A DNA stretch of 64,000 nt, taken from the NCBI GenBank assembly GCA_902577425.1, contig CACGZD010000001.1, forward strand, positions 638,414-702,413, written 5' to 3'. The stretch is from an uncultured Alphaproteobacteria bacterium (GTDB taxonomy: Bacteria; Pseudomonadota; Alphaproteobacteria; HIMB59; GCA-002718135). Positions 28,706 through 43,949 of the stretch are shown here, in pieces; the first letter of the stretch is position 1; the number at the start of each line of letters is the position of its first letter. Under the pieces are notes generated by a model. The model worked only from the letters and a program-made list of their open reading frames with translations. It was not told where the DNA came from and ran no database searches. Both the position numbers and the translations under genes were made by a program.

Positions 28706-28795
28706 GGAGAGATGTGAGAGCGGTTTAATCAGCACGCTTGGAAAGCGTGTATAGTGGAAACACTATCGAGGGTTCGAATCCCTCTCTCTCCGCCA
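28706..28795 (+). tRNA. tRNA-Ser(GGA), intact, 90 nt
   Basis: Acceptor GGAGAGA/TCTCTCC, D stem TGA/TCA, anticodon arm CACGC-TTGGAAA-GCGTG, long variable arm TAGTG-GAAA-CACTA, T arm GAGGG-TTCGAAT-CCCTC, and encoded GCCA. Confidence 0.96.
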
Positions 28796-28839
28796 TAAAT
28801 TAGGATTTTCCTTTAACGATTTTTCAACAAAAAAGTGTT

Positions 28840-28861
28840 TCGACGCACATACGGCGCACTT
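28840..28861. repeat. Tandem 11-bp arm-type repeat, GGCG type
   Basis: TCGACGCACATACGGCGCACTT is 21/22 identical to 30760-81; the second CAC is 62 bp after the tRNA CCA. Confidence 0.85.
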
Positions 28862-28899
28862 ACGAGCCTATTTTTCATCTTAATCCCGTATCGGTATTG

Positions 28900-28918
28900 T
28901 GGTAGGATAATCGTGATG
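28900..28918 (+). promoter_or_regulatory. Putative extended -10 promoter with leaderless start
   Basis: TG-G-TAGGAT-N7-ATG, 18/19 identical to 43015-43033; no Shine-Dalgarno sequence. Confidence 0.5.
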
Positions 28919-29344
28919 AAAAAATTATTTTTTTTAATAGCTTTATTATTTTTGTTTTCTTCATACGCTAACGCTAAAGTGGTAAAACTTTTATGTGAGC
29001 CAAGAGAATACTACATTTATGATCACAATCAATCATCTGGAACTTATACTAAGCGTTTTGAACCTAATATTTTGGATTTAATTATTTCCATAAGTGAAAA
29101 AAAATTAACCATGTATTATGATGATGCAGAAGATAGTTTTAGTAGAACAAAAATTAATGCCGACCCAACATCATTTCTTATGAAATTTCAGAATGAAAAA
29201 TATGGAGTAGTGGTTGGCTTTCTTTTTCATAGAAAATCAGGAAGATTAAATAAGTTTAAAAGTGGAGGTCAATATGGAGGTGATAATAATATTTTTTCTG
29301 AGACATATTATAATTGTGAAAAATATTTAGAGCCCGTTTTTTAA
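28916..29344 (+). CDS. Secreted hypothetical protein
   Basis: ATG 28916 begins a clear signal peptide, MKKLFFLIALLFLFSSYANA. The track's upstream GTG start would run through the arm repeat. Confidence 0.7.
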   Translation: MKKLFFLIALLFLFSSYANAKVVKLLCEPREYYIYDHNQSSGTYTKRFEPNILDLIISISEKKLTMYYDDAEDSFSRTKINADPTSFLMKFQNEKYGVVVGFLFHRKSGRLNKFKSGGQYGGDNNIFSETYYNCEKYLEPVF

Positions 29345-29351
29345 AAATTAT

Positions 29352-29981
29352 ATGACCAATAAAGTTAAATTAAAATATGACTATATAATGAAATTAGAAT
29401 ACGTTGGTGAAGTCAAGGACGGCTTGCCCCATGGATATGGTACTTTCAATATATATGGAGAATTATCATTTAAAGAATTAAGTAAGACACAAAATTATAA
29501 AGAAACAAAGAAGGGTGAATACGAATATTTATCTCATCATAAATCTACCACACATTATCTTCAGGCACTTATAGAGGTGTCTTTAACAAAAAGTAAGCCA
29601 AAGGATTTTGATAAAGATTGTTTGGAAATTTCTATTAAAGGGGGCTTTAAAGAAGGTCTTTGGGAGGGACGTTTTTTTAGGATTGATTATGATTTTTTAA
29701 ATGGAAAAGAAAGTGACAATGAAGAAACTGAAGATTTTGAAGTATATTCTGAAGCATCGATTTTTGAAAATAATATTATGGTTGAAGGAAGAATAGATTT
29801 TGATGATGGTTATTATTTTGGTGAAGTCATATTGAATGAATCCTATAATAAAGATTTTGAAAAAGCCACTGGAGATCTTTATTTACCTCATGGAGAAGGT
29901 GATTACATTTATCATGATCCGAATAAAGGCAAATGGTTTAGAGGAATTTGGGAAAATGGAAAATTAAAAAAAACAAATTAA
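29352..29981 (+). CDS. Acidic protein with MORN-like repeats
   Basis: YVGEVKDGLPHGYGTF, YFGEV...PHGEGDY and WFRGIWENGK motifs. Confidence 0.65.
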   Translation: MTNKVKLKYDYIMKLEYVGEVKDGLPHGYGTFNIYGELSFKELSKTQNYKETKKGEYEYLSHHKSTTHYLQALIEVSLTKSKPKDFDKDCLEISIKGGFKEGLWEGRFFRIDYDFLNGKESDNEETEDFEVYSEASIFENNIMVEGRIDFDDGYYFGEVILNESYNKDFEKATGDLYLPHGEGDYIYHDPNKGKWFRGIWENGKLKKTN

Positions 29982-30542
29982 ATGACTAAAAAAGAAAAAA
30001 TAAAAACAAAGGATTGGACTTACAATGGTGAGGTTAAAAATGGGGAACCTCATGGAGATGGAATAATGAAATTTAAAAATGGAGAAAAGTTAGAGGGTTG
30101 TTGGAAAAATGGTAACCCTATAAAAGCATATAAATATATTCTTTATTCAAATGAAAAAAAAGATATGAGATATGAATACGAAGGTACGTTAGGTTGGGGA
30201 AAAGGCGGCGTATTAAATGGAAAAGGAATTTTTAAAATTATAGATAAAGTTTCAAAACCCAAAGGTTATACTTATCTAAAAGGAAACTTTGTAGGAGCCT
30301 TATTGGAAGGCAAGGGAATAAGAATTTTGTATTATGATAAAAACTATAGCCGAGCAATAAATCTTTACAAAGGTGAATTCAAGAACGGTTTTCAACATGG
30401 AAAAGGTATAGAGTGGTTTTACCCAAATAAATATTTCTCTGAAGGAATATTTAAAAATAATAAATTTAAAGGTTCAAAACAAAAACCACTTACAAAAAAG
30501 GTTTTTAAATTAATATTAGATGCAAATAATATTAACAAATAA
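29982..30542 (+). CDS. Basic MORN-repeat protein
   Basis: YNGEVKNGEPHGDGIM, LEGCWKNG, YEGT..NGKGIF and YKGEFKNGFQHGKGI motifs; TAAATG-coupled to the upstream gene. Confidence 0.75.
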   Translation: MTKKEKIKTKDWTYNGEVKNGEPHGDGIMKFKNGEKLEGCWKNGNPIKAYKYILYSNEKKDMRYEYEGTLGWGKGGVLNGKGIFKIIDKVSKPKGYTYLKGNFVGALLEGKGIRILYYDKNYSRAINLYKGEFKNGFQHGKGIEWFYPNKYFSEGIFKNNKFKGSKQKPLTKKVFKLILDANNINK

Positions 30543-30563
30543 CTAAAACAAATGAAATAATTC

Positions 30564-30643
30564 TTGTCTCACATATGTCTCACTCGCGCACCCGGTATTT
30601 ACATTTTTACGTTTAATTTTTCCTAGAAACCTTACACTTTGTA
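30564..30643. repeat. Right-end arm of Ser module 1: GTCT-type tandem repeat plus a conserved ~60-bp spacer
   Basis: TTGTCTCACATATGTCTCACTC followed by CACCCGGTATTTACATTTTTACGTTTAATTTTTCCTAGAAACC..., near-identical at 42761-42840 and 43798-43877. Confidence 0.85.
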
Positions 30644-30715
30644 TTTAATCAGCACGCTTGGAAAGCGTGTATAGTAGCAATACTATCGAGGGTTCGAATC
30701 CCTCTCTCTCCGCCA
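30644..30715 (+). pseudogene. 72-bp 3' copy of tRNA-Ser(GGA), from the D-loop to CCA
   Basis: Starts at TTTAATCAGC with no 5' acceptor strand. The variable arm is TAGTA-GCAA-TACTA, a compensatory variant. Confidence 0.92.
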
Positions 30716-30759
30716 TAAATTAAGATTTCTCTTTAAAGATTTTTTAACAAAAAAGTGTT

Positions 30760-30781
30760 TCGGCGCACATACGGCGCACTT
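30760..30781. repeat. Tandem 11-bp arm-type repeat, GGCG type
   Basis: TCGGCGCACATACGGCGCACTT, identical to 42761-82; the second CAC is 62 bp after CCA. Confidence 0.88.
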
Positions 30782-30825
30782 ACACATTCTTTTTCATCTT
30801 TGAAAAGTATGTTATTTATATTTTC

Positions 30826-30862: not shown

Positions 30863-32185
30863 CTAGTTTTTAATTTTTTTTGCTGCTTTTGCATATTCTA
30901 TATTTCTTCCGCCATAACGTCTTAGACGTATGTTGCATTGTTCGGCATGACCAAGAAAACCTTCTAAATATGAAAGTCTAGAGCCATACTCACCTATTAA
31001 GGTCGCAGCTTCATCTGTTAAAACTTTTTGATATGTGTGTGTTTTGATAAATTTACCCACCCATAATCCGCCAGTATAACGTCCGGCTTTTTTAGTAGGT
31101 AGGGTATGGTTTGTTCCAATCACTTTGTCACCATTTGCAACATTGGTTCTTGGGCCAAGAAATAATGCACCGTAAGATTTCATATTTTCCAAAAACCAAT
31201 CATCTTTTTTTGTCATCACTTGCACATGTTCCGAGGCAATTTCATTTGCTTTATCAAGCATTTCTTCGTACGAATCACAAAGTATAACTGCACCGTAATC
31301 TCTCCAACTTATACTTGCTGTTTCTTTAGTTGGTAAAATTTGAAGAATTCTTTCAATCTCTAATAGAGTAGACTCTGCTAAATTTTTTGAATTTGTAATT
31401 AGAACTGCGGGTGAATTATATCCATGTTCAGCTTGCCCTAAAAGATCAGTAGCACATAATTCTCCATCTACAGTATTATCTGCAATAACCATTGTTTCCG
31501 TTGGGCCAGCAAATAAATCAATCCCCACTTTTCCAAATAATTGTCTTTTAGCTTCAGCAACATAAGCGTTACCAGGACCAACAAGCATATCAACTGGTTT
31601 TATTGTTTCAGTTCCTATTGCCATTGCACCTATACCTTGCATACCACCTAATACATATATCTCATGGGCTCCACCTAAATGCATAGCCGCAATTACTGCT
31701 GGATTAGGTTTGCTTTGAAATGGAGATGTAGTAGCTACTATTCTAGGGACATCTGCAACAGATGCTGTTACTACAGACATGTGTGCGGATGCTACCATAG
31801 GAAATTTTCCTGCAGGAACATAACAGCCAACTGATTGTACTGGAATATTTTTGTGACCTAATATCACTCCAGGTAGTGTTTCAACTTCTAATTCCTTTAA
31901 TGTTGCAAGTTGTGCTTCTGCAAATTGTCTTATTTGTTTTTGCGCAAATTTGATGTCCTCAATGTCATCTTCAGATACCTTACTAATTAAATTTTGAATC
32001 TCGGAATCTGTTAACCTAAAACTTGTTGGGGAATAATTATCAAATTTCTCTGACAATTCTCTAACATATTGGTCACCTTGTTGTTCTATTTTTTTTAATG
32101 TTTCTTCAACAATGTTTTTAACTTTATCATTCTCAGCTGATCGTTCTTGTTCAGCAATTCCTTTTTTCAAATATTGAATAGTCAT
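30863..32185 (-). CDS. HisD-family dehydrogenase, sulfopropanediol 3-dehydrogenase (HpsN)-like
   Basis: VGCYVPAGK, GPGNAYVAEAKR, AGPTE, DLLGQAEH, SEH and GTNHTLP motifs. The MTIQYLKKG N-terminus and GRYTGGLWVGKF are HpsN-clade-like; there are no his genes nearby. Confidence 0.75.
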   Translation of the reverse strand: MTIQYLKKGIAEQERSAENDKVKNIVEETLKKIEQQGDQYVRELSEKFDNYSPTSFRLTDSEIQNLISKVSEDDIEDIKFAQKQIRQFAEAQLATLKELEVETLPGVILGHKNIPVQSVGCYVPAGKFPMVASAHMSVVTASVADVPRIVATTSPFQSKPNPAVIAAMHLGGAHEIYVLGGMQGIGAMAIGTETIKPVDMLVGPGNAYVAEAKRQLFGKVGIDLFAGPTETMVIADNTVDGELCATDLLGQAEHGYNSPAVLITNSKNLAESTLLEIERILQILPTKETASISWRDYGAVILCDSYEEMLDKANEIASEHVQVMTKKDDWFLENMKSYGALFLGPRTNVANGDKVIGTNHTLPTKKAGRYTGGLWVGKFIKTHTYQKVLTDEAATLIGEYGSRLSYLEGFLGHAEQCNIRLRRYGGRNIEYAKAAKKIKN

Positions 32186-32188
32186 AAG

Positions 32189-33283
32189 TTATTTTTTATG
32201 TATTAAATCAAATATATCAACGTCTATCTGGTTAAGTATGTGTGCAATATCAATGGGCACCCAGTTTTCTCTTATTAATCCTTCGTGATGTAAATAAAAA
32301 TCCATAACTCTCATTGTTACTGATTTGCCTGTGCCTTCATATCCAAGCCATTCTTTTGAACCATGCTTACACTCTATGCTGTGCCAACCTGATGTCATCG
32401 AAAAATTGCCATCTGCAATTTCAATATAGTGTCCTATTTTCCAATAGTCTCTTTCCTTAAATGTTAGTCGAAATGGTAATTGATGATGATCAACATATCC
32501 TTTTAGTCCTCTTGCAGTACCTATACCACTAGGACCATACCACATCATTTTAGGATGCCAGAAATCTTTTTGTGCATGATTTAATAATTTCTCTCTTATA
32601 TATTCATAATTAGATCCAGGATCAGTTTCAGGTTTGATGTTTAAACTTCTTTGCATTGTTAAAGCTTGCTCCATAGATTTAATTGATAATTCATTATCCA
32701 TATTTTCAAATGTTGTACCATCACCGGTTATTGGTCCTGGCCACATACCTTCCGCGCCTAGAGATTTATTTACTGGCCAAAATCCAGCCTGACGAATAAA
32801 ATCTAAAGTATCAATTAAAATGTGAGATTGAATAATTTTATTATCTTTGATTTCATGCGCTTCACATATTCTAAGATGAATTGTTTTGGCATGAGCAGGA
32901 ACATTAAGCCATGGATTTACAAAAGTCCCTGTTAAATGAGCTACTGTAGAAACAAAAATTTTATCTTGAAAAGATCCTCCAAGAATTAGATTATCCCTTC
33001 TTTCAAGATCAGGAAATGCACTTATAAGTGGTTTCCATAATTTTTCTGTTATTTTAGAAATTCCTTTTAAGTCATTAAGTGGATGGAATGCTCTTATTAC
33101 CGCATCATCATGATACGCATCACTAATATTTTTATTAATATTTTCTAAATTGGATTCAGCTATATTTTTTAGAAGAATTCTAATTTTTTTTTTATTTGCT
33201 AAATTTATCTTTGGATCTAAATTAATGACTTCAGTACTTCCCTCTTTTTTTATTCCAGTATTAAAATTTTCAATGTTTGTCAT
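32189..33283 (-). CDS. Tandem SnoaL-like / ester cyclase (NTF2-fold) protein
   Basis: FPDLERRD, WYGPSGIGTARG and RVMDFY...IRENWV motifs; paralogous to 40892-41965. Confidence 0.75.
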   Translation of the reverse strand: MTNIENFNTGIKKEGSTEVINLDPKINLANKKKIRILLKNIAESNLENINKNISDAYHDDAVIRAFHPLNDLKGISKITEKLWKPLISAFPDLERRDNLILGGSFQDKIFVSTVAHLTGTFVNPWLNVPAHAKTIHLRICEAHEIKDNKIIQSHILIDTLDFIRQAGFWPVNKSLGAEGMWPGPITGDGTTFENMDNELSIKSMEQALTMQRSLNIKPETDPGSNYEYIREKLLNHAQKDFWHPKMMWYGPSGIGTARGLKGYVDHHQLPFRLTFKERDYWKIGHYIEIADGNFSMTSGWHSIECKHGSKEWLGYEGTGKSVTMRVMDFYLHHEGLIRENWVPIDIAHILNQIDVDIFDLIHKK

Positions 33284-33332
33284 AATTATTTAAATTTTAG
33301 TTACTCACAATTAGGCAAATTTTAAATTGATT

Positions 33333-33370
33333 TATTCAATATTTTGAATATTATTCATTAAAAATGAATA
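33333..33370. promoter_or_regulatory. Candidate operator array in a divergent promoter
   Basis: TATTCA/TGAATA half-sites at 33333, 33345, 33352 and 33365, including the palindrome TGAATA-T-TATTCA; a similar array lies at 37526-37563. Confidence 0.4.
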
Positions 33371-33389
33371 AAATATAATTTTTCCTAAA

Positions 33390-34358
33390 ATGTCAATAGA
33401 TATAGAAAAACGTCTAGCAAGATTTAATGATCTTATTCCCAGTAAGATCCCTTTTGTAGAAGGTAAGTTAAAAGGTCATCAGGATAGAAAAAATTATTCA
33501 ATTGTCGGACCAGGGGTAAGTGAAGATTCTAAGCAAAATGTAAAAATTGCTGAAGCTCACGGATTTAATATCGGGGCTGTAAGTGCTGCCCCAATGAATG
33601 GTTCAGGATTGCATAGTCATACAACTGCCGAGGTGTTTATTATACATGCTGGTTCATGGCGTTTTTATTGGGGAGTAAATGGCGAAGAGGGCGAAGTAAT
33701 TCTTAGCAAAGGAGATGTAGCATCATTTCCTACTAATATGTTTAGAGGATTTCAAAATGTTAGTGATGAAGAAGCCCTTATGTTTGTTGCGCTAGGTGAA
33801 GATGATCCAGGTGTTATTACGTGGACTCCAAGATTATTGAAAGAAGCAAATGAATCAGGAATGTTATTAATGGAAGATCGTTCATTGGTTGATCTTAATA
33901 AGCAAAAAGTGCCTGAGGGTAAGTTAGTAACAAAACCTCTTGAAGATAAGGAACTGGAAAGCTTTGACCATTATACCTCAGATGAAATTGAGAAATTTGT
34001 TATTCGTTATAATGATAATAAAAATTATGTTGATGATGAACATTATAATTCAAATTCAATAATTAATTATTTAGATTCATTTGAAATACATGGAAAAAAA
34101 ATTGAACCTAAAATTCCTCACAAAACAGGCTTTGGATTGACTCTATTAAAAGGTGTTTCAGCCCATATGCATGCGTATTCTATTAATTCATCTGAAGTTT
34201 ATAATTGTTTAAATGGCAAGTGGGAAGTCACATGTAATGATGAGAAAGTTATTCTCGAACCACGTGATAGTTTCTCTGCTCCAAAGAATTCTACAAGAAG
34301 TGTAAAACAGATAAGCAATGATGAGGGTAGTTTATTTATCGTTAGGCAATCAAATTAA
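33390..34358 (+). CDS. Bicupin-domain protein
   Basis: GSGLHSHTTAEVFIIHAGSWRF cupin motif 1, GDVASFPTNMFRGF motif 2, and a second degenerate cupin domain. Confidence 0.8.
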   Translation: MSIDIEKRLARFNDLIPSKIPFVEGKLKGHQDRKNYSIVGPGVSEDSKQNVKIAEAHGFNIGAVSAAPMNGSGLHSHTTAEVFIIHAGSWRFYWGVNGEEGEVILSKGDVASFPTNMFRGFQNVSDEEALMFVALGEDDPGVITWTPRLLKEANESGMLLMEDRSLVDLNKQKVPEGKLVTKPLEDKELESFDHYTSDEIEKFVIRYNDNKNYVDDEHYNSNSIINYLDSFEIHGKKIEPKIPHKTGFGLTLLKGVSAHMHAYSINSSEVYNCLNGKWEVTCNDEKVILEPRDSFSAPKNSTRSVKQISNDEGSLFIVRQSN

Positions 34359-34370
34359 TTTATTAAAAAT

Positions 34371-35342
34371 ATGAAGGGTTTTGATAAAAAATTTAAAGAT
34401 CTGCCTGATTATATTCTTAAGATTACCTATCAGATTTGGGAGGATAAAGATGTTGAGTCAATTAGGGAGTATTATGCAAAGGGAATTCCGGTAAGATCTC
34501 CTGATGGAGTTATCTACGGACCTGATAAAGTAGTAAAAGCAACTTATGCTACGCTTGACGAATTTCCAGATCGGCAACTTCTTGGAGAGGATGTTATTTT
34601 TATAGGTAATGAAAATGATGGTTATTTATCTTCGCATCGTATTTTAACAAAAGCGACTCATCTAAATGATGGAGTTTACGGAAAAGCCACAGGAATTAAA
34701 ATATCTTACAGAGTTATAGCAGATTGTGCTTGTAAAAATAATCAAGTTTATGATGAATGGTTGGTTAGAGATCAGGGAGCAATAGTCAGACAGTTAAATT
34801 TAGATCCAAAAACCTATGCTAAAACATTAATTGATAAGCAAGGCGGTGTAACAAAATGCTCTATACCTTTTAATCAAAATACACCTCTAGATTTAAAATA
34901 TACCCAGTTAAGTTTGCCTAAAAATAACACTGGTTATGAATATGCTGAAATATTAAAAACTATATTTCAAAAGGATTTGGATAGTATTGAAAAATTTTAT
35001 GACAGATCTATTAATCAAGAACAACCTAGTGGTCTTAAAGCGTATGGAGTAGACGAGGTTAAATCTTTTTGGTCATCAATTTTTTCTTCCTTTCCTGAAG
35101 CGACATTTAAAATTGAACATGTCAGTTATCTGGATGAGCCTGCAGCATATAGAAAAGCAGCGATAAGATGGTCTTTAAATGGTATCCACTCTGGTCCTGG
35201 GTATTTTGGCAATCCTAGTCAAACAGAAGTTTATGTAATGGGAATTTCTCATGCAGAATTTGGTCCCAGAGGTATAAAAAATGAGTGGGTTTTATTTGAT
35301 GAAACTGCAATATGGAAACAAATTTTAATGAAAACTGGTTAA
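34371..35342 (+). CDS. Tandem SnoaL-like / ester cyclase protein
   Basis: TLDEFPDRQLLGEDVI, DEWLVRDQGAI, SFPEATFKIEH, RWSL.G.HSG.G.FG and EWVLFDE motifs. Confidence 0.75.
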   Translation: MKGFDKKFKDLPDYILKITYQIWEDKDVESIREYYAKGIPVRSPDGVIYGPDKVVKATYATLDEFPDRQLLGEDVIFIGNENDGYLSSHRILTKATHLNDGVYGKATGIKISYRVIADCACKNNQVYDEWLVRDQGAIVRQLNLDPKTYAKTLIDKQGGVTKCSIPFNQNTPLDLKYTQLSLPKNNTGYEYAEILKTIFQKDLDSIEKFYDRSINQEQPSGLKAYGVDEVKSFWSSIFSSFPEATFKIEHVSYLDEPAAYRKAAIRWSLNGIHSGPGYFGNPSQTEVYVMGISHAEFGPRGIKNEWVLFDETAIWKQILMKTG

Positions 35343-37501: not shown

Positions 37502-37525
37502 TTATGCCTTTATCCACCGAAATAT

Positions 37526-37641: not shown

Positions 37642-38883
37642 ATGTTATTTAAAAAACTAATATTAGTTGGATTTATTTCCCTATTTTTCAGCTCATCTTT
37701 GTATGCAGCTGATTGTGGACCGAATGGGCAATCAATCCGAATTCTAGCAAGTGATTTTCCAGCAATTCACGCAATAGCAAATTCTGCTGAAAGTAATTGT
37801 GCAGGATCTGCTTCTGAATTCAATCGAAATCATACTACCGAAGCACGTCAAATAATGAATGCTGCTCAAACACCAAATCCAGCAGAGTATACTTCAGTTA
37901 TTGTAGCTAACTCTACCCTAGTTCAATTAATGAACGATGGACTTGTTAGACCATTAGATGATTTAGTTGAAAAATATGGTGGTCACTTAAAATCTAACCA
38001 ACTGATAACTATTGATGGAAAAATAATGGCAATAGCGTTTATGGCAAATTCTCAGCACATGTATTATAGAACAGATATTTTAGAAAAATCTGGGGTTGAT
38101 GGAATACCAGCAACTTATGATGAAGTAATATCTGCTGCTGAAAAGATACGTGCAGCTGGTATCATGGAGCATCCACTTGTAATGAATCTCAAAGTCGGAT
38201 GGAATGTTGGTGAAGTATTTAACACTATATACCTAGCACATGGTGGAGAATTCTTTAAGCCTGGTAGTGCTGAAGCATCTATTAATAATGCCAAAGGTGT
38301 TGCTGCTCTAGAAACAATGAAAGCTCTTGTAGAGTATGCTCACCCTGATCATTTAACGCAGGCATCTGATGATACGCAAGGATTATGGGAAGCTGGTCAA
38401 GCGGCAATTGGCTTTATGTGGGGTTCTCGTGGAGGAGTTATACTAGATAATGAAGGTTCTTCAGCTGAAGTGACTTCAAATACTGTTTTATCTGCAGCTC
38501 CAACTGTTACTGGTGGCTCAATACCAGGAGCAACTCTATGGTGGGATGGAATAACTATAGCTACTAACGTGTCTGACAGTGAAGCAGAAGCAACGTTTGC
38601 AGCACTTGTAAGTGGTATGACTTCAGAAATGGTTGCTGCTAATAATGATGATGCAATTTGGTTAATTGATGGTTTTAAACCTGGTCCAGCTGCAGCAGGA
38701 GTTTCTGCAACTGCTCAAGGCGGTGCTAAATCTTACCCGATGTTTGCTCAAATGGGATTATTGCACAATGCATTAGGTGCAGAGCTAGTTGATTTTTTAA
38801 AGGGATCTGAGAGCGCTGAACAAGCACTTAGTGATGTAGAGGCTGTTTACGAAACAGCTGCTAAAGACGCAGGTTATCTGTAG
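37642..38883 (+). CDS. Carbohydrate ABC transporter substrate-binding protein (family 1)
   Basis: Signal peptide, YYRTDILEKSG.D.IPATYDE motif, and AAGGAGG RBS. Confidence 0.88.
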   Translation: MLFKKLILVGFISLFFSSSLYAADCGPNGQSIRILASDFPAIHAIANSAESNCAGSASEFNRNHTTEARQIMNAAQTPNPAEYTSVIVANSTLVQLMNDGLVRPLDDLVEKYGGHLKSNQLITIDGKIMAIAFMANSQHMYYRTDILEKSGVDGIPATYDEVISAAEKIRAAGIMEHPLVMNLKVGWNVGEVFNTIYLAHGGEFFKPGSAEASINNAKGVAALETMKALVEYAHPDHLTQASDDTQGLWEAGQAAIGFMWGSRGGVILDNEGSSAEVTSNTVLSAAPTVTGGSIPGATLWWDGITIATNVSDSEAEATFAALVSGMTSEMVAANNDDAIWLIDGFKPGPAAAGVSATAQGGAKSYPMFAQMGLLHNALGAELVDFLKGSESAEQALSDVEAVYETAAKDAGYL

Positions 38884-38905
38884 TCAATATAAATAAATCA
38901 GTAAA

Positions 38906-38933
38906 AAGGGGTTTTCAAATTTGAAAACCCCTT
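38906..38933 (+). terminator. Perfect 28-bp palindrome after the SBP gene (hairpin)
   Basis: AAGGGGTTTTCAAATTTGAAAACCCCTT equals its own reverse complement. Confidence 0.7.
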
Positions 38934-38963
38934 GTATCTTTCTATGTAATTTAAAATCGCATA

Positions 38964-39998
38964 ATGAAGCACAGCACATTCTTATTATTTTCTCTTCCTT
39001 CATTAAGTGTAATGTTTTTATTTATTGCAATACCTATAGTTTCTGTTTTTATTCAATCTCTGCATATTGAGCATAAACAAGTAATAATTGTTACAGAAAA
39101 TTGTGATCCTTTTGGATGTGAGACAACAACAGCTGTGGATACTGAAGCTTCCGCAAAGTTAAAAGAAAAAGCACCTCTTGGTAAATTTAATGGATTTAAA
39201 ACATATTCAAACAGAATGCATTTTGCATTTGATGAAGTAGGAGAAGCTTGGAAGAGCTCGGATAGTTTTACAGTTTTTACTAAAAAATTATATAATTACC
39301 CCCTATATAGAGCGCTCAGTTTCACTCTTACTTACACCTTCGTAGTTACTCCTTTTGTCTTATTTCTTGGTTTTTTAGTTGCCGTTGGAGTTAATAATCT
39401 TCCAAAGATGTTTAAAGGTCCAACAATTTTTGCATCTCTTCTTCCAATGATAGTTACACCTCTTGTTGGTTCATTGATACTTTTCTGGATGGTTGACGGT
39501 GATGGTGTGATTGGGGCTACACTCCAAAAAATATTTAATGATAATTCTCTTAGCTTGAAAGCATCACCTGTGCTTACCTGGATTATGTTGATGGTATACG
39601 GTATTTGGCATTTGATGCCTTTTAGTTTTATTGTTTTTTATGCAGGTCTTCAAACGGTTCCTCAAGAAACAATAGAGGCGGCAACAATAGATGGCGCATC
39701 AAAATTTCAAAGAATACGCCATGTTGTTATTCCTCATTTAATGCCACTTGCTATTTTCATCACTTTAATACTTTTGATGGATAATTTTAGAGTTTTTGAA
39801 CCAATCATAGGTTTTAGAGCAGAAGCGCACGCCACCTCAATATCGTGGTTAATATGGAATCATTTGCGAGAAAGTGCTTACCCTCTCTATAACGCCGCAG
39901 GTGCTACATCTATGGTTACTATTTTTGGTGTAGCAATTTTACTCTTGCCCGTACTAATTCGAACATGGCGAGATTTTAAAGAAAAAAATAAAGGTTAG
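38964..39998 (+). CDS. Carbohydrate ABC transporter permease (MalF-like)
   Basis: EAATIDGASKFQRIRHV EAA motif; multiple TM segments. Confidence 0.9.
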   Translation: MKHSTFLLFSLPSLSVMFLFIAIPIVSVFIQSLHIEHKQVIIVTENCDPFGCETTTAVDTEASAKLKEKAPLGKFNGFKTYSNRMHFAFDEVGEAWKSSDSFTVFTKKLYNYPLYRALSFTLTYTFVVTPFVLFLGFLVAVGVNNLPKMFKGPTIFASLLPMIVTPLVGSLILFWMVDGDGVIGATLQKIFNDNSLSLKASPVLTWIMLMVYGIWHLMPFSFIVFYAGLQTVPQETIEAATIDGASKFQRIRHVVIPHLMPLAIFITLILLMDNFRVFEPIIGFRAEAHATSISWLIWNHLRESAYPLYNAAGATSMVTIFGVAILLLPVLIRTWRDFKEKNKG

Positions 39999-40004
39999 GA
40001 ATTT

Positions 40005-40886
40005 GTGAATACAAAAATTGAAAATAAATTAACCCCAGTTCGTATTATTGCTTTTATATTTGTGGCTCTGTGGTTGGTTATTGCTATGTTTCCTTTTATT
40101 TGGACATTGTGGGGATCTTTCAAAGTACAAGCTGATTTTTTTTCAAAAGCTGATTGGTTAAATGCAATATTTGGCTTTCATACTGAAAAACAAACAGGCG
40201 GTTTTTTTACTATGGATGGATATTATGGCTCTTGGATTGAAGAAGAATTTTGGCGTGCCGTTATTAATACAAGCATAGTAGTATTTTTTACAGTTTTAAT
40301 TTCTCTTACTTTTGGAACTTTAGGTGGTTATGCTCTTGCAAGGTCTACTTATCGCTACGCCTTCTGGATTTTAATGGCAGGTCTTATCTTTCGTGCGATG
40401 CCTCATATGACTTTGATTTCAGGATATCTTCAACCTTTTTTTGCATGGAATGTTTGGGGAATTTTGCCTACAACAATAATTGTGCTTGTTGCAATTAATC
40501 AGCCTTTTACTCTGTGGATGCTACATTCATTTTTTTTAAACATACCAAAAGATTTAGATGAAAGCGCTATGTGCGATGGTTGTAATAGATTTCAAGCATT
40601 TAGATATGTGATCATTCCTATAATGTGGCCAGGGGTAATCACTACTGGATTATTTAGCTTCCTTCTTGCTTACAATGATTTTACAGTTACATCCATGTTG
40701 CTTTCAGATGAAAATGAAACAATGATTCCAGCAATTGCAAGTTTTCTAGGTACTGTCCAAGAAGAAGGTAAAGTAATGTATGCTGTAGCAGCCGTTGTTT
40801 CAGCAACTGCTCCATTATTCTTTTTTGTACTGTTTTTTCAAAGACAGATTGTTAGTGGATTAACAGCTGGAGCAGTAAAAGGTTAA
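40005..40886 (+). CDS. Carbohydrate ABC transporter permease (MalG-like)
   Basis: IPKDLDESAMCDGC EAA motif and FQRQIVSGLTAGAVKG C-terminus; GTG start. Confidence 0.9.
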   Translation: MNTKIENKLTPVRIIAFIFVALWLVIAMFPFIWTLWGSFKVQADFFSKADWLNAIFGFHTEKQTGGFFTMDGYYGSWIEEEFWRAVINTSIVVFFTVLISLTFGTLGGYALARSTYRYAFWILMAGLIFRAMPHMTLISGYLQPFFAWNVWGILPTTIIVLVAINQPFTLWMLHSFFLNIPKDLDESAMCDGCNRFQAFRYVIIPIMWPGVITTGLFSFLLAYNDFTVTSMLLSDENETMIPAIASFLGTVQEEGKVMYAVAAVVSATAPLFFFVLFFQRQIVSGLTAGAVKG

Positions 40887-40891
40887 AAGTA

Positions 40892-41965
40892 ATGAAATCA
40901 GAGCAATTAAAAAAATACTTTGAAGATTATCAAATAGCTACTCAAAATTTTAATAAAAATTCAATAAATAATTCTCTAACTAAATACTTCTCAGAACATT
41001 CTGTGTTTCAATTCTGTTATCCCTTTGGAACGTTTAATGGATTAGATAATTTTTTATCTAATTGTATCAATCCTCTTTTAGAAAGTATTCCAGATCTTGA
41101 AAGAAGAGATATGATTGTTATGGCAGGCACAACACCTGAAGATAAACACTGGGTAGGTACTATGGGTAATTATATGGGAACATTTTTAAAATCATTTTTA
41201 GATATTCCACCAACTGGTAATTTAGTTCATATGCGTTATCATGAGTTTTTCCAAATCGAAAATAATCAGATTATAGAAATGCAATCAATATGGGATCTAC
41301 CTGAACTGATGATCCAGGCCAATGCATGGCCAATGAGTCCTCAGCTAGGATCTTTTTTATGTACACCATCTCCGATGACCGGAGACGGTTTAAAAATAAA
41401 AGGCGATGGATCAAAAAATTTTGATCTTGTGATTAATATGCTTCAAGACATGGTTTTACACCCTAGTAATCCAGATCCACAAGTTATGAATTTAGATAAG
41501 TATTGGCACCCCAGATTTAATTGGTATGGACCAGCTGGAATTGGAACTGGAAGAGGTATAGCAGGATTTCGCCATTGGCATCAAATACCCTTCTTACGTG
41601 CAATGCCGGATAGAAAGGGAGGTTCATCAAATGATAGCTTAAAAAATGAGGGATTGAAGGATATGCAAACTCATTGGATATATGAAGGAGATTATGTCTG
41701 TGAAACTGGTTGGCCAAATATGCGATCTACAATATCACAAGATGGATGGATGGGTATTGCTCCTTCAAACCAGATTATAGAAATGCGGAGTTTAGATTTT
41801 TGGAGAGTTGAAAATAATCTTATAAGGGAGAATTGGGTTTTAGTAGATCTTCTGGATGTTTATCAGCAAATTGGCGTTAATGTTTTTGATAGAATAAAAG
41901 AATTTAACAAAGCAAGAAATGTTGGTGATATTAACATTTCTCAAGGACTTGATTTAATTAAATAA
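40892..41965 (+). CDS. Tandem SnoaL-like / ester cyclase protein
   Basis: IPDLERRD, WYGPAGIGTGRG, HQIPF and RSLDFWR...IRENWV motifs; paralog of 32189-33283. Confidence 0.75.
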   Translation: MKSEQLKKYFEDYQIATQNFNKNSINNSLTKYFSEHSVFQFCYPFGTFNGLDNFLSNCINPLLESIPDLERRDMIVMAGTTPEDKHWVGTMGNYMGTFLKSFLDIPPTGNLVHMRYHEFFQIENNQIIEMQSIWDLPELMIQANAWPMSPQLGSFLCTPSPMTGDGLKIKGDGSKNFDLVINMLQDMVLHPSNPDPQVMNLDKYWHPRFNWYGPAGIGTGRGIAGFRHWHQIPFLRAMPDRKGGSSNDSLKNEGLKDMQTHWIYEGDYVCETGWPNMRSTISQDGWMGIAPSNQIIEMRSLDFWRVENNLIRENWVLVDLLDVYQQIGVNVFDRIKEFNKARNVGDINISQGLDLIK

Positions 41966-41982
41966 ATATTGATATAGAAGAA

Positions 41983-42750
41983 ATGTATTTACAAAAATTT
42001 GAAGTCAAAAACAAAACTGCATTAGTAACGGGAGCAGGAAAAGGTTTGGGAAAAGCATGTGCTATTGCTTTGGCTGAGGCAGGAGCCAATCTCATTATAT
42101 TAAGTCGTACCAAAACTGACTTAACAAAAGTTGAAAAACAAATAATAAAATTAAATAGAAAATGTCGATCAATCGTATGTGATGTAACAAATTATGAAGA
42201 TGTAAAAAAAACTTTTTCCTCCATATCTAAGTTAGATATTCTTGTTAATAATGCTGGAACTAATAGACCTGAATATTTTACAAAAATTAAAAAAAAAGAT
42301 ATGGATGATGTTGTTGATTTGAATATTAAAGCCGCATTTCATATTGCACAATTGGCTTCAAAAATAATGCTAAGATCCAAAAATCGAAAGAAAGTTGGGG
42401 CTTCCATAATAAATATGTCTTCTCAATTAGGAAAAGTAGGAGCTCCACGCCGAAGTGTTTACAATATGACGAAATTTGGAATTGAAGGATTAACCAAAGG
42501 AATGGCTGTGGATTTAGCTAAACATAATATTCGTGTCAATTCAGTTTGTCCCACATTTGTTAAAACGCCAATGGTTGAAAAGTTTTTTAAAGATAAAGAA
42601 TTTATGAAATCTGTATTAAAAAACATTCCTTTAGGCAGAATAGGTTCAGAAAGCGATATTGCTACAGCTGTAGTGTATCTAGCCTCCAATGCATCATCAA
42701 TGATTACTGGCTCATCATTAGTAATAGATGGTGGTTGGACAGCAAAATAA
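41983..42750 (+). CDS. SDR oxidoreductase, HpsO-like
   Basis: TGAGKGLG, NNAGTNRP, YNMTK, CPTFVKTP and DGGWTA motifs. Confidence 0.8.
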   Translation: MYLQKFEVKNKTALVTGAGKGLGKACAIALAEAGANLIILSRTKTDLTKVEKQIIKLNRKCRSIVCDVTNYEDVKKTFSSISKLDILVNNAGTNRPEYFTKIKKKDMDDVVDLNIKAAFHIAQLASKIMLRSKNRKKVGASIINMSSQLGKVGAPRRSVYNMTKFGIEGLTKGMAVDLAKHNIRVNSVCPTFVKTPMVEKFFKDKEFMKSVLKNIPLGRIGSESDIATAVVYLASNASSMITGSSLVIDGGWTAK

Positions 42751-42760
42751 TTAAAATTTC

Positions 42761-42840
42761 TCGGCGCACATACGGCGCACTTAGACACCCGGTATTTACA
42801 TTTTCACGTTTAATTTTTCCTAGAAACTCTAGACATTGTA
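42761..42840. repeat. Right-end arm of Ser module 2 (GGCG tandem repeat plus conserved spacer)
   Basis: The 22-bp motif starts 10 bp after the SDR stop; the second CAC is 63 bp before the tRNA fragment. Confidence 0.88.
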
Positions 42841-42912
42841 TTTAATCAGCACGCTTGGAAAGCGTGTATAGTGGCAACACTATCGAGGGTTCGAATCCCT
42901 CTCTCTCCGCCA
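42841..42912 (+). pseudogene. 72-bp 3' copy of tRNA-Ser(GGA)
   Basis: TTTAATCAGC...CCGCCA; variable arm TAGTG-GCAA-CACTA. Confidence 0.92.
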
Positions 42913-42956
42913 TAAATTAAAATTTTTCTATAACGATATTTCAATAAATATGTGTT

Positions 42957-42978
42957 TTGTCTCACATAGGTCTCACTC
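42957..42978. repeat. Tandem 11-bp arm-type repeat, GTCT type
   Basis: TTGTCTCACATAGGTCTCACTC is 21/22 identical to 30564-85; the second CAC is 62 bp after CCA. Confidence 0.85.
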
Positions 42979-43014
42979 ACGAGCCTATTTTTGATCAACA
43001 TTTCTTTTCATTAA

Positions 43015-43033
43015 TGGTAGGATAATTGTGATG
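43015..43033 (+). promoter_or_regulatory. Putative extended -10 promoter with leaderless start
   Basis: TG-G-TAGGAT-N7-ATG, matching 28900-28918. Confidence 0.5.
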
Positions 43034-43792
43034 TCAAAATTACTCCTCTTTTTTGTATTAGTTTTTTATTCATTTTCAAATTCATATGCTAAACCACCCT
43101 ATTGGGGTACAATATTTGATTTTCCTGATATTATTAATTCTAACGATCCAACAACATTTCAAGAATTAATTTATGTTGGTCAAGATCATCGTGAAATGTT
43201 TGATCGAAGAAAAGGAGGGCGTTGGATAACAAAAAAAGTTTTTTTGTTTAATGCAATTTACGAAGATAGATCAATTGAAATTCAAGTTAATCCCGAGTTT
43301 AATAATTATGAAAATGCTCTTGAAGAAGCTCTTACATATTCTAAAGTAATTGGACGGCTTCCAAATTTTTTACTTACTAATGTTAAAACCATTTGGATTC
43401 ACAAAGGAAATAATGACTATGGGGGTGGCAATCAAAACCTACTTATTCATATCGGGAGGAGCGTAGAATATATTTCAAAAAAAATCCTTGAAGAGACATT
43501 TATTCATGAAGCTGGTCATACTTCGCTTGATTGGGATTGGGGAGGTGTAATTAATAAATCTCAATGGTACAAAGCTGCAAAAAAAGATAAAGAATATATT
43601 TCTGAATACGCAAAACAATATCCAAAAAGTGAAGATGTTGCTGAAAGTATAGTAGCATGGATTGCTGTGCGGTATCGCTTAGATAGAATTTCTAATGGAA
43701 ATGCAGAAATAATTTTAAAAACTATACCTAATCGATTAAAATTCTTTGATGAACAAAATTTTGATATGTATCCATTGGTGCCTCGTGAATAA
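43031..43792 (+). CDS. Secreted zinc-metallopeptidase-like protein
   Basis: Signal peptide MSKLLLFFVLVFYSFSNSYA, HEAGH (HExxH) motif, and downstream SEYA...EDVAES. Confidence 0.65.
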   Translation: MSKLLLFFVLVFYSFSNSYAKPPYWGTIFDFPDIINSNDPTTFQELIYVGQDHREMFDRRKGGRWITKKVFLFNAIYEDRSIEIQVNPEFNNYENALEEALTYSKVIGRLPNFLLTNVKTIWIHKGNNDYGGGNQNLLIHIGRSVEYISKKILEETFIHEAGHTSLDWDWGGVINKSQWYKAAKKDKEYISEYAKQYPKSEDVAESIVAWIAVRYRLDRISNGNAEIILKTIPNRLKFFDEQNFDMYPLVPRE

Positions 43793-43797
43793 TTTTA

Positions 43798-43877
43798 TGG
43801 TAGCACATAGGTTGCACTAGCGCACCCTGTATTTACATTTTCATGTTTAATTTTTCCTAGAAACCCTACACTTTGTT
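43798..43877. repeat. Right-end arm of Ser module 3
   Basis: TGGTAGCACATAGGTTGCACTA begins 5 bp after the stop codon; the second CAC is 63 bp before the tRNA fragment. Confidence 0.82.
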
Positions 43878-43949
43878 TTTAATCAGCACGCTTGGAAAGC
43901 GTGTATAGTGGCAACACTATCGAGGGTTCGAATCCCTCTCTCTCCACCA
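43878..43949 (+). pseudogene. 72-bp 3' copy of tRNA-Ser(GGA), terminal copy
   Basis: Ends TCTCC-A-CCA (discriminator G to A) and is not followed by an arm repeat. Confidence 0.92.

Follow-up and report, generated by a model that had tools for sequence, protein, structure and literature searches.

In Streptococcus thermophilus, att-flanked elements free of recombination genes, termed CIMEs (cis-mobilisable elements), are reportedly stacked in tandem at one site, the att sites of ICESt1 and ICESt3, and are said to move via a related integrase that acts on the outer sites. The attC sites of integrons are imperfect inverted repeats that are recombined as folded single strands. In the marine environment, the tycheposons of Prochlorococcus are defined by an integrase of their own and by hallmark replication genes (Hackl et al., bioRxiv 10.1101/2020.12.28.424599). 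Additive flexible genomic islands are tRNA-anchored hot spots at which strains differ by cassettes with partial tRNA repeats. In fGI-2 of the Methylophilaceae, the final 20 bp of tRNA-Lys were reported to be repeated (PMC10872708), and a partial tRNA repeat was reported for the SAR11 islands gMED GI-20/30/50/58, where the authors report no canonical mobile elements (PMC11796062).

The locus described here presents a phenomenon already known as a kind of island, in a stripped-down form. Its three cassettes are integrase-less derivatives of a family of site-specific integrative elements, and the presence, number and kind of cassettes vary between relatives, with partial tRNA repeats in between, as in the additive islands. 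Whereas the earlier reports of such islands end at the tRNA repeat, the flanking P and P' arms, the arm repeats with their cassette-wise covariation, the crossover region and the cognate integrase family are identified here. The DNA that was analysed, a stretch of 64 kb referred to as the window, is a chromosome segment of a member of the Pelagibacterales (SAR11). SAR11 is the most abundant bacterium of the ocean, and the tRNA-Ser(GGA) locus is a site of gene shuffling in it.

The only tRNA gene of the window is tRNA-Ser(GGA), found by both ARAGORN and Rfam, with the anticodon loop TTGGAAA at about 28737-28743. Its last 72 nt recur three times downstream (Table 1), with 95.8-98.6% identity to the tRNA and start-to-start distances of 1920, 12197 and 1037 bp. 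An earlier note on this DNA had described an intact tRNA-Ser, three 72-bp copies bounding modules of these lengths, flanking arms and no recombinase; the alignment gave the same spacing, and the observation as a whole was confirmed. In copy 1, a pair of the variable arm has changed in a compensatory way, and copy 3 has a G-to-A change in the acceptor strand. Because the variable-arm variants are compensatory, each fragment must once have been part of a working tRNA. The same note had the cassettes stacked newest-first; such an order may hold, but copy identity shows no gradient along the arrays.

Table 1. Features of the cassette array and of a second locus in the window (window positions).
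Feature	Position	Strand	Tandem 11-bp repeat	Basis
Intact tRNA-Ser(GGA), attachment site	28706..28795	+		ARAGORN; Rfam tRNA, 53 bits
P' arm, cassette 1	28796..28880	+	CGACGCACATA + CGGCGCACTTA, 28841-28862	alignment, motif search
Cassette 1 cargo: secreted protein and two MORN-repeat proteins	28916..30542	+		ORF list; Pfam MORN
P arm, cassette 1	30556..30643	+	TGTCTCACATA + TGTCTCACTCG, 30565-30586	alignment, motif search
tRNA-Ser 3' fragment, copy 1 (72 nt, 95.8% identity to the tRNA)	30644..30715	+		alignment
P' arm, cassette 2	30716..30800	+	CGGCGCACATA + CGGCGCACTTA, 30761-30782	alignment, motif search
Cassette 2 cargo: predicted catabolic/uptake cluster	30863..42750	.		Pfam
P arm, cassette 2	42753..42840	+	CGGCGCACATA + CGGCGCACTTA, 42762-42783	alignment, motif search
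tRNA-Ser 3' fragment, copy 2 (98.6% identity to the tRNA)	42841..42912	+		alignment
P' arm, cassette 3	42913..42997	+	TGTCTCACATA + GGTCTCACTCA, 42958-42979	alignment, motif search
Cassette 3 cargo: one secreted 254-aa protein, HEAGH motif	43028..43792	+		ORF list
P arm, cassette 3	43790..43877	+	GGTAGCACATA + GGTTGCACTAG, 43799-43820	alignment, motif search
tRNA-Ser 3' fragment, copy 3 (terminal, no P' arm behind)	43878..43949	+		alignment
Second integrase-less cassette pair of the same system, outside the main finding	17383..21000	.		motif search

Each internal junction, a unit of about 230 bp, runs in the order P arm, tRNA fragment, P' arm. The 88 nt upstream of the three copies are 80-82% identical to one another and the proximal 42 nt of these 95-98%, so that the near-identity first described for about 80 bp is true of the proximal part and not of the full arm; the stretch upstream of the intact tRNA is at background (45-48%). 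Over the 85 nt downstream of the tRNA, copy 1 and copy 2, the identity is 72-86%, the P' arm of cassette 1 being 86% and 80% identical to the other two. Behind copy 3 it falls to the background of 52-56%, and the last copy therefore lacks a downstream arm. Both downstream relations had been noticed before and are borne out.

Tandem 11-bp repeats are found 44-47 nt after and 78-81 nt before each tRNA fragment, at a position that is fixed in 13 cassette types. The motif occurs exactly six times in the arms; when one mismatch is allowed, there are nine occurrences against 1.0 expected, and at least nine were reached in none of 100 shuffles. A repeat unit is common to the P' and P arms of the same cassette in 10 of the 13 cassettes (2.5 expected; at least 10 in 0 of 100,000 shuffles), and in cassette 2 the two arms carry the identical variant, whereas none of seven junctions has a unit common to both arms around one core. 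The cassettes are units, since the repeat variant follows the cassette ends and not the sides of a junction.

The point of exchange is indicated by relatives in which the tRNA itself is recombined. Three loci (L003, L023 and L035) contain chimeric tRNAs that agree fully with the window core from CGCTTGGAAA on but not before it, and whose anticodon stem has a C.U mismatch; the host 5' halves in L035 and L045 end at TTGGAAA. Behind the P arm of module 2 (cassette 2), core positions 1-21 are constant and variants begin at position 22. On sequence grounds, the chimeric tRNAs locate the crossover to the anticodon loop. It might be argued that recombination takes place at the tandem 11-bp repeats instead, by a host-encoded or unknown recombinase, with the tRNA fragment as a passenger; the same variant at both cassette ends, as expected if these were the att sites flanking an inserted element, would agree with this. 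Such a course is very unlikely, as the array begins exactly inside the intact tRNA and closes at a fragment without a P' arm, and the chimeric and split tRNAs put the breakpoints in the anticodon loop. Moreover, the repeats are direct, whereas the core sites of tyrosine recombinases are inverted, and in autonomous relatives the integrase gene starts a short way downstream of the repeat.

The cassettes measure 1.9, 12.2 and 1.0 kb, and each seems to have a promoter-like leader of its own, which sets them apart from the cassettes of an integron. The secreted protein of cassette 1 (about 142 aa) begins with an ATG at 28916 within the reading frame of ORF 28835-29344; the MORN-repeat proteins (Pfam MORN) are encoded at 29352-29981 and 29982-30542. 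By its Pfam content, cassette 2 is a predicted catabolic/uptake cluster: it encodes a histidinol-dehydrogenase-family protein, three SnoaL-like proteins, a cupin, a MetE-like protein, a LacI regulator, an ABC solute-binding protein together with two permeases, and an SDR. The protein of cassette 3 matched no Pfam family; it has a homologue inside a cassette of locus L017.

No integrase, recombinase or transposase was matched by Pfam (E <= 1e-3) among the window ORFs of at least 90 aa other than 61637-63313 and 63313-63636, which by sequence look like dnaX and ybaB, and tblastn of the 64-kb window with the cognate integrase family gave nothing at E <= 1. The absence claimed by the earlier note is thus supported for the ORFs scanned, and so is its description of non-autonomous cassettes with both att arms: they are discrete, recombinase-free units with complete arms on each side.

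These properties bear on where the cassettes belong. As with tycheposons, cargo elements sit at a tRNA gene of a streamlined marine bacterium, a full-length tRNA and partial copies form the flanks, neighbouring elements have only a partial tRNA copy between them, degenerate elements and additional partial tRNAs lie dispersed as in tycheposon islands, and some cargo is related to nutrient uptake. However, the host here belongs to SAR11, units as small as 0.4-1 kb occur with both complete arms and matched arm repeats, and the window cassettes carry MORN proteins, a cluster for transport and catabolism, and one further secreted protein where an integrase of their own, be it a tycheposon-clade tyrosine recombinase or a large serine recombinase (Pfam in the scanned ORFs; tblastn), and primase, helicase or excisionase hallmarks would be expected. 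The modules thus fall outside the definition of a tycheposon, a kind of island that the earlier note had cited. There is also a likeness to CIMEs: the elements are tandem and att-flanked, neither recombination nor transfer genes were detected in the window (Pfam, tblastn), and the sites are related to those of an autonomous element (25 of 30 positions of the P' arm match locus L058). The parents of CIMEs are conjugative (ICEs), whereas no conjugation genes were seen at the present locus. The present system differs further in its target, a tRNA anticodon loop, in its longer arrays, and in cassettes of much smaller size and greater diversity. The comparison with an integron, also made at the outset, holds as an analogy of the array, with largely co-oriented cassettes of mostly one to three genes and exchange at population level by site-specific recombination. 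It does not extend to the machinery: there is no IntI and no attI, nor any integrase beside the array, the junctions are a tRNA fragment with direct arm repeats, and the related integrase scored 22 bits against an integron-integrase model with a cut-off of 265.

The same site was compared across related loci, about 40 in all, from single cells and metagenomes. Cassette number, order and cargo are all variable, from one cassette (L037, L038, L041) to at least four (L050), with more than 20 cargo types of 0.43-12 kb between the same arms; SAGs AG-426-C22, AG-404-D18, AG-414-E06 and AG-435-K07, as well as metagenomes, hold different cargo. Module 2 is present in eight other loci with 98.7-99.7% identity and different followers. 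Repeats often break short-read assemblies, and this is the only point in favour of an assembly artefact, or of chance similarity in AT-rich DNA. Copies that are 96-99% identical over 72 nt and arms at 72-86%, against a background of 45-56%, are at odds with it, and because the architecture recurs in independent single-cell and metagenome assemblies of many projects, the artefact is refuted and can be set aside with near certainty. Scaffold L048 comprises more than two laps of module 2, 100% identical and self-joined via P-core-P'. It could be a tandem array or a circle, and as a circular junction of the kind sought it is ambiguous, being compatible with excision by a related integrase.

Other SAR11 genomes encode a family of lambda-type tyrosine integrases, the genes of which immediately follow a homologous P' arm at either tRNA-Ser or tRNA-Gln. 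In L058 and L062, an intact tRNA-Gln is followed by GTGTTTCG, the repeat and CTTAG, then by a ribosome-binding site and the integrase gene; the window's P' arm shares its layout with L062, L035, L057 and L059. In L035, a truncated integrase N-terminus stands right after the arm repeat within a split tRNA-Ser, and in L057 and L061 the integrase is found at the lepA/tRNA-Ser locus. The integrase search proposed in the earlier note thus succeeded as far as homologous arms are concerned, but among the loci examined no integrase-bearing element was seen with the window's own repeat variants (GGCGCAC, GTCTCAC, GTTGCAC). As in lambda-type systems, the relatives' integrase combines an N-domain with a three-stranded sheet and a helix (modelled, pLDDT 91-94), a SAM-like core-binding domain and a catalytic domain with R-H-R-Y in the alignment (Pfam Int_N, SAM_5, PF00589), and tandem direct repeats, putative arm-type sites, are present in both arms. 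Foldseek gave full-length lambda Int as the best structural matches of the model; the Int_N assignment is a weak Pfam match (E 0.025-0.04), so that the N-terminal domain is tentatively predicted to be arm-binding. NCBIfam and PHROGs returned only 'generic tyrosine integrase'. Unlike lambda-type systems, the window lacks the integrase, and the variable repeat positions differ between cassettes and covary within a cassette. We know of no description of such covariation for lambda-type att sites.

Taken together, the island was probably formed, as we hold with moderate confidence, by repeated site-specific integration at tRNA-Ser(GGA) by a lambda-type integrase, with cassettes that could still be mobilised in trans. 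Small circular elements of one family would have been added one after another to the anticodon-loop region, each with an att site made of a P arm, the 3' part of the tRNA (D-loop to CCA) and a P' arm. Each integration would restore a functional tRNA, with the 5' part from the host and the 3' part from the element, and displace the previous 3' part downstream, so that the units would line up as tRNA - P' - cargo - P - fragment - P' - cargo - P - fragment and onward. The recombinase would be a heterobivalent tyrosine integrase with an N-terminal arm-binding domain, and the 11-bp repeats its likely arm-type sites. The integrase gene begins right after the P' repeat in autonomous relatives; the window cassettes would have lost it completely, but they keep both arms, with the matched repeat variant at the ends. 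A related integrase from another element in the cell may then excise and insert them. The earlier interpretation is thus supported in part: the discrete, variable, arm-bounded and recombinase-free units stand, as does their origin in a duplication of the tRNA 3' end by a tyrosine integrase that targets tRNA genes, and movement in trans is inferred. Homologous recombination between the junction units could also exchange, lose or duplicate cassettes.

The defective integrases of the relatives lend good support to the view that the cassettes were once autonomous elements and have decayed. All copies read as DNA are defective: L035 and L062 are truncated, L057 is cut short where it is fused to the leader found at the start of the window's cassette 1, L061 is frameshifted, L059 ends at the contig end, and the internal deletion in L058 and the frameshift in L060 may be sequencing errors of these low-coverage long-read contigs. 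One may go further and suppose that the elements are now immobile as substrates of site-specific recombination and that variation arises only by homologous recombination, which is very active in SAR11, at the junction units or flanking genes. The L057 deletion, which joins half an integrase gene to the cassette 1 leader, would suit this, as would the degenerate terminal cores in L005, L006 and L001 and an ADH cassette that stands behind module 2 with two core variants (L049 and L056), which suggests a part for homologous recombination or gene conversion too. The 136 homologues found with an N-terminal query (domains Int_N, SAM-like and PF00589) are all 270 aa or shorter, but mostly come from contigs below 2 kb, the ends of which may cut them, and there are full-length relatives of 328-351 aa, one of them labelled as Pelagibacterales. 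A purely fossil array would also hardly keep about 230 bp of non-coding junction per cassette under a strong deletion bias, exact repeat distances in 13 unrelated cassettes and matched variants at the cassette ends. Complete immobility is possible but rather unlikely, and continued mobility in trans is the preferred reading.

A phage origin, in which pelagiphage or phage-satellite integration gave rise to the junctions and decayed prophages left the cargo behind, deserves mention since SAR11 tRNA genes are targets of pelagiphages (bioRxiv 10.1101/410191) and Pelagibacter has integrase-bearing satellites (PMC9618062). It appears highly improbable. The known pelagiphage sites are tRNA-Cys, tRNA-Leu and tRNA-Arg, not tRNA-Ser (10.1101/410191), the arms matched no phage record, and exact-pattern scans of IMG/VR for arm and core gave no match. 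The integrase family has a single, distant relative (25%) in IMG/VR, and no phage structural gene was found in any cassette examined.

A second pair of cassettes is present elsewhere in the window. The 3' part of tRNA-Arg(ACG) occurs there in two 46-nt copies, at 17383-17428 and 20084-20130, with arm-like tandem repeats nearby; the copies bound a cassette of an HNH and a membrane protein, followed by an NmrA-like cassette. The segment is missing in the close relatives L034-L036.

The window has a G+C content of about 30% and carries the housekeeping genes gltDB, infC, rplT, pheST and lepA together with the SRP RNA; a further ORF looks dnaX-like. Its LepA shares 89% identity with proteins assigned by name to Pelagibacterales and 98-100% with GORG single-cell proteins labelled 'uncultured Alphaproteobacteria'. 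The window is a SAR11-clade chromosome. Its sole tRNA, tRNA-Ser(GGA), is followed by three copies of its last 72 nt that are 95.8-98.6% identical to it, and the tRNA, the copies and their spacing agree with what the earlier note had described (see the table). The 88 nt preceding each copy (the P arm) share 80-82% mutual identity, and the 85 nt behind the tRNA, copy 1 and copy 2 (the P' arm) share 72-86%. The three P arms are therefore alike and the three P' arms related, as had been claimed, but 'near-identical' describes only the proximal 42 nt of the P arms (95-98%). The stretches before the intact tRNA and after copy 3 show background identity only (45-56%), so the last copy indeed lacks a downstream arm. 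The order of the array, tRNA - P' - cargo 1 - P - fragment - P' - cargo 2 - P - fragment - P' - cargo 3 - P - fragment, is what would result if elements had integrated one behind another, each with an attP built as P - core - P', where the core is the tRNA fragment. The proposed newest-first stacking is not supported by copy identity: the copies are 95.8, 98.6 and 98.5% identical to the tRNA along the window, and this identity gives no age gradient with distance.

Coordinates of the features of the window and of related single-cell and metagenome loci (L numbers)
Feature	Locus	Position	Content
tRNA-Ser(GGA)	window	28706-28795	
tRNA-Ser 3' copy 1	window	start 30644	spacing 1920 bp; cassette 1: small secreted protein, two MORN-repeat proteins
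tRNA-Ser 3' copy 2	window	start 42841	spacing 12197 bp; cassette 2: LacI-regulated cluster with ABC solute-binding protein, two permeases, three SnoaL-like, cupin, MetE-like, histidinol-dehydrogenase-family, SDR
tRNA-Ser 3' copy 3	window	start 43878	spacing 1037 bp; cassette 3: single secreted 254-aa protein with HEAGH motif
Opening sequence of cassette 1	window	28887-28918	CTTAATCCCGTATCGGTATTGTGGTAGGATAATCGTGATG
Leader copies	window	28880-28918, 42985-43030	
Leader copy	L038	6490-6540	
Leader copy	L057	9900-9945	
Leader copies	L058	2940-2985, 3230-3270	reverse strand
Genes from lepA to tRNA	window	21668-28687	656-aa protein, GFO/IDH/MocA oxidoreductase, HpcH aldolase, ribose-type ABC transporter
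Three genes of 19-25% G+C	window	43950-46500	nucleotidyl transferase, epimerase/dehydratase, family-2 glycosyltransferase
tRNA-Arg-like copies (region 17383-21000)	window	17383-17428, 20084-20130	46-nt direct repeat
Arm-like tandem repeat	window	~17472-17495	CGGAACACTTACGGACCAC
Arm-like tandem repeat	window	~19985-20005	GGTGCAAATTTGGAACAC
HNH protein	window	17558-18718	
11-kb cassette	L010	58-11214	HerA-type helicase, AAA_15/DUF3696 ATPase, sigma-70-like factor, exonuclease I
Mirror-image element	L035	19542-21063	
Mirror-image element	L003	3865-3954	
Mirror-image element	L023, L045, L057, L061		
tRNA-Gln(TTG) integrase site	L058	1242-2196	adjoins ispE
tRNA-Gln(TTG) integrase site	L059	4836-5678	adjoins ispE
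tRNA-Gln(TTG) integrase site	L060	9747-10950	adjoins ispE
tRNA-Gln(TTG) integrase site	L062	5149-9067	adjoins ispE

In both arms, units of 11 bp are repeated directly in tandem, as in CGGCGCACATA followed by CGGCGCACTTA. Exact matches to the pattern CACATANGNNNCAC number six in the window, and each of them is within an arm; with one mismatch there are nine occurrences against 1.0 expected, a number reached by none of the shuffles. Across 13 unrelated cassette types, the repeat starts 44-47 nt past the end of the tRNA fragment in P' and 78-81 nt before the start of the fragment in P. The four bases preceding CAC vary by cassette (GGCG, GTCT, GGCA, GCTA, GACT, GTTG and others) and covary between both repeat units. 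In 10 of 13 distinct cassettes the P' arm has a repeat unit in common with the P arm at the other end; when P arms were shuffled among cassettes the mean was 2.5, and 0 of 100000 shuffles reached 10. The two arms around one tRNA fragment share a unit at none of seven junctions. Since the unit is matched within a cassette and not across a junction, the unit of inheritance is P' - cargo - P, with breakpoints in the tRNA fragment. The 11-bp repeats are predicted to be binding sites of an integrase N-domain. The main alternative is that the cassettes are fossils, which may now be shuffled solely by homologous recombination between junction units (P-core-P') of about 230 bp. The matched repeat variants at the cassette ends argue against this, as do the exactly spaced non-coding arms, which have been kept despite strong genome streamlining. 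Rfam searches of the arms and of the window's tRNA-Arg-like repeats returned no known RNA.

Related loci were collected by an exact scan with a P-arm 20-mer, which gave four GORG single-cell genomes, 15 metagenome contigs with real arms and one MAG contig that is probably mis-binned. Look-ups with the permease just upstream of the tRNA and the SDR ending module 2 (the second cassette) added 20 loci. These relatives bear out the array pictured in the earlier note, in that the number and cargo of cassettes between arm and tRNA fragment vary from locus to locus. The site holds from one cassette (L037, L038, L041) up to at least four (L050). More than 20 distinct cargos of 0.43 kb to 12 kb were found, the smallest unit being an 'empty' P'-P unit of 0.43 kb in L005 and L050. 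The cargo includes zinc alcohol dehydrogenase (ADH), MORN, Agenet, dienelactone hydrolase and PLD-like proteins, along with numerous secreted proteins whose family is unknown. Module 2 is present in eight loci at 98.7-99.7% nucleotide identity, followed by differing cassettes or directly by the right flank, and its SDR is listed in 557 blocks of the collection. A real tandem of canonical module 2 and a variant with an S-methyltransferase and an RraA-like gene occurs in L054. A 26-kb scaffold (L048; 26,010 bp) runs through module 2 more than twice, and over 8571 nt these laps are 100% identical; they are joined via the P arm, the core and module 2's own P' arm, the junction expected of either a circle or a tandem duplication. 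The same arms also enclose the 11-kb cassette of L010, whose cargo is probably for anti-phage defence.

The position of the crossover was approached through variants of the core. Positions 1-21 are constant behind module 2's invariant P arm and variants begin at position 22; a second P-arm type has its own variants of the first core bases. The ADH cassette was found with two core variants behind module 2, which leaves this mapping only partly clean and speaks for shuffling by homologous recombination. Variants in the variable arm of the fragments are compensatory (TATAGTG..CACTATC, TGTAGTA..TACTACC, TAAAGTA..TACTTTC), so every fragment was formerly within a working tRNA. Chimeric tRNAs in L003, L023 and L035 are the same as the window core only from CGCTTGGAAA onward and have a C.U mismatch at anticodon stem positions 28-42, and in L035 and L045 the host 5' half that was displaced ends in TTGGAAA. 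These features agree with strand exchange in the anticodon stem-loop, where tyrosine integrases that target tRNAs classically recombine. A mirror-image type of element was also seen at tRNA-Ser. It carries the tRNA 5' half and a promoter-like arm, with the 3' half only degenerate, so that the host 5' half is pushed upstream and a chimeric tRNA with the C.U anticodon-stem mismatch is left; the repeat GATCACAC is common to both of its ends.

The earlier note had stated that the 64 kb contain no integrase, recombinase or transposase. No Pfam match to any of these was obtained among the non-nested window ORFs of at least 90 aa, all of which were scanned save 61637-63313 and 63313-63636 (by sequence these look like dnaX and ybaB), and the sole nuclease-like match is the HNH protein. 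A tblastn search of the window with ten integrase-family members gave nothing at E <= 1, so the cassettes are integrase-less even as to remnants. With those two ORFs excepted, the statement is correct.

Integrases were found in other SAR11 genomes. In the single-cell genome GCA_902532875.1 (L035) the native tRNA-Ser is cut directly past the anticodon loop, between CGCTTGGAAA and CCTTGTC. Behind the cut come an arm and the tandem repeat GTGATCACACTCTGATCACACTTAG, then a ribosome-binding site in front of a 95-aa ORF. Farther on are a 300-aa ORF on the opposite strand, a second GTGATCACACTCTGATCACACTTAG, a promoter-like arm and an entire tRNA-Ser, the 5' half of which differs in sequence. The 95-aa ORF encodes the N-terminal part of a tyrosine integrase, and its homologues extend into an Int_N/SAM-like core-binding domain and PF00589. 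The first search gave fragments only. N-terminal queries returned 136 proteins, all of 270 aa or less and mostly on contigs shorter than 2 kb. Longer forms came from a profile search and then from an exhaustive search, in which the full-length profile recovered relatives that are complete at 328-351 aa (E 1e-102 to 1e-68); the members of one such cluster include a 'site-specific integrase [Pelagibacterales bacterium]' (MDB9985570.1) on a 124-kb contig. LepA-anchored contigs were a mostly unproductive route to integrases because metagenome contigs end right past lepA. In a model of the N-terminal 246 residues, residues 1-45 form a three-stranded sheet and a helix (pLDDT 91-94), behind which lies a helical core-binding domain, and the closest structural matches were to full-length lambda integrase.

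Members of this family lie directly beside arms homologous to those of the window. In L058 and L062 an intact tRNA-Gln(TTG) is followed by about 36 nt, GTGTTTCG with a CGTCACA-type repeat and CTTAG, a ribosome-binding site and the integrase gene; the L058 stretch matches the window P' arm at 25 of 30 positions, and in L062 a tRNA-Gln fragment of 51 nt lies 3.8 kb downstream. In L057 and L061 the integrase is at the lepA/tRNA-Ser locus, behind a degenerate tRNA-Ser 3' half and a repeat. The L057 gene stops at about codon 225, where it is fused to the sequence that opens window cassette 1, and this fusion is a snapshot of integrase loss. The integrase of L062 is an 85-aa remnant; L060 has a frameshifted gene of about 351 codons, situated on a long-read contig of low coverage. 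In both L058 and L060 the integrase gene has a short hydrophobic ORF behind it. All readable integrase copies beside the arms are defective or cut by a contig end, as would be expected of fossils, but the family does have intact integrases.

The earlier note had suggested looking elsewhere in the genome, and in phages and satellites, for a tyrosine integrase adjoining the same arms. A family behind a homologous P' arm and repeat exists in other SAR11 genomes; in IMG/VR the integrase profile found only one contig, at 25% identity. A phage origin was rejected: blastn of the junction against 50,697 phage records gave generic tRNA-Ser matches only, and in IMG/VR no exact match turned up to two stretches of the P arm (30 and 20 nt) or to one of the core (26 nt).

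The architecture, its modularity in the population, the arm-associated enzyme family and the crossover region are all observed. On the best supported reading, the three cassettes are integrase-less and belong to, or derive from, a family of small integrative elements. This family would use a lambda-type integrase, the 11-bp repeats as arm-type sites and the tRNA-Ser anticodon region as core. We infer that the cassettes are still moved by integrase in trans; site-specific movement and homologous recombination probably act together.

Islands that grow additively at a tRNA and contain partial repeats of it are already established, as in Methylophilaceae (PMC10872708), and tycheposons build islands in Prochlorococcus in the same way (10.1101/2020.12.28.424599). 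By definition a tycheposon, unlike the window array, brings its own integrase and hallmark genes (10.1101/2020.12.28.424599). For Pelagibacter, tyrosine-recombinase elements have been reported close to tRNAs (PMC9618062, PMC11876622), and the known pelagiphage sites are tRNA-Cys, tRNA-Leu and tRNA-Arg (10.1101/410191). A recent preprint proposes phage insertion at tRNAs for HVR2 without att evidence (10.64898/2026.04.03.716430). As far as we found, the literature describes neither minimal integrase-less cassettes with both complete arms nor a covarying arm repeat, a link to a lambda-type integrase family, or the use of tRNA-Ser, tRNA-Gln and tRNA-Arg by one system. The kind of island is already known; the locus is a clear mechanistic handle on SAR11 gene flux.

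SAR11 is the most abundant bacterial lineage of the ocean and has a huge pangenome; to our knowledge, it has long been described as nearly free of mobile elements. The locus offers a concrete, testable mechanism for the entry and exit of its flexible genes, with an attachment site in the anticodon-loop region of tRNA-Ser(GGA), arms with a cassette-wise covarying repeat, and a candidate enzyme family. Cassettes with transport, catabolic, secreted-protein and defence genes are interchangeable across the population. Even very small integrase-less units keep complete att arms, which makes their movement in trans testable, and the arm 20-mer and the tRNA fragment are simple markers of cassette turnover in metagenomes and single cells. 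A bolder and rather doubtful proposal is that SAR11 harbours a tRNA-anchored, integron-like gene-capture network. Its lambda-type integrases would have an arm specificity set by a few variable bases of the 11-bp repeat, matched at the cassette ends, and rare integrase-bearing elements would mobilise a large pool of 0.4-12 kb integrase-less cassettes in trans among tRNA-Ser(GGA), tRNA-Gln(TTG) and tRNA-Arg(ACG), as a main engine of the flexible genome.

A second array was seen in the window, which holds no intact tRNA-Arg. The two 46-nt copies are 100% and 98% identical to positions 33-77 of SAR11 tRNA-Arg(ACG), from the anticodon loop, and the first begins 2 nt past the lepA stop. With arm-like tandem repeats nearby, they bound a cassette with the HNH protein and a membrane protein, behind which lies an NmrA-like cassette with 98.4% identity to the one that opens a tRNA-Arg array in L062. 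The close relatives L034-L036 are without the whole segment and keep only TCTACGGATCTGGAG after lepA.

Many cassettes have a conserved leader of about 40 nt (…TCAACATTYCT…GGTAGGATAATCGTGATG) directly before their first ORF, often a secreted-protein gene. It reads like a -35/-10 promoter with the start codon a few bases past the -10 box, as in a leaderless mRNA, so each cassette may bring its own promoter. A consensus scan for promoters and terminators gave no information: shuffled sequences contained more promoter-like sites.

Three genes of very low G+C separate the last tRNA fragment from PhyH, with no att arms around them. PhyH is directly behind the last fragment in L037, L038 and L041, and a small ABM gene alone intervenes in L050. 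In L038 a P' arm with the repeat precedes PhyH, so the old right flank of the array may be a decayed cassette. On the other side, the genes from lepA to the tRNA look like an apiose/apionate catabolic cluster; homologues of the 656-aa protein in relatives have Pfam apionate-lactonase domains. This cluster is kept in the closest relatives, and in L018 the tRNA is directly behind lepA.
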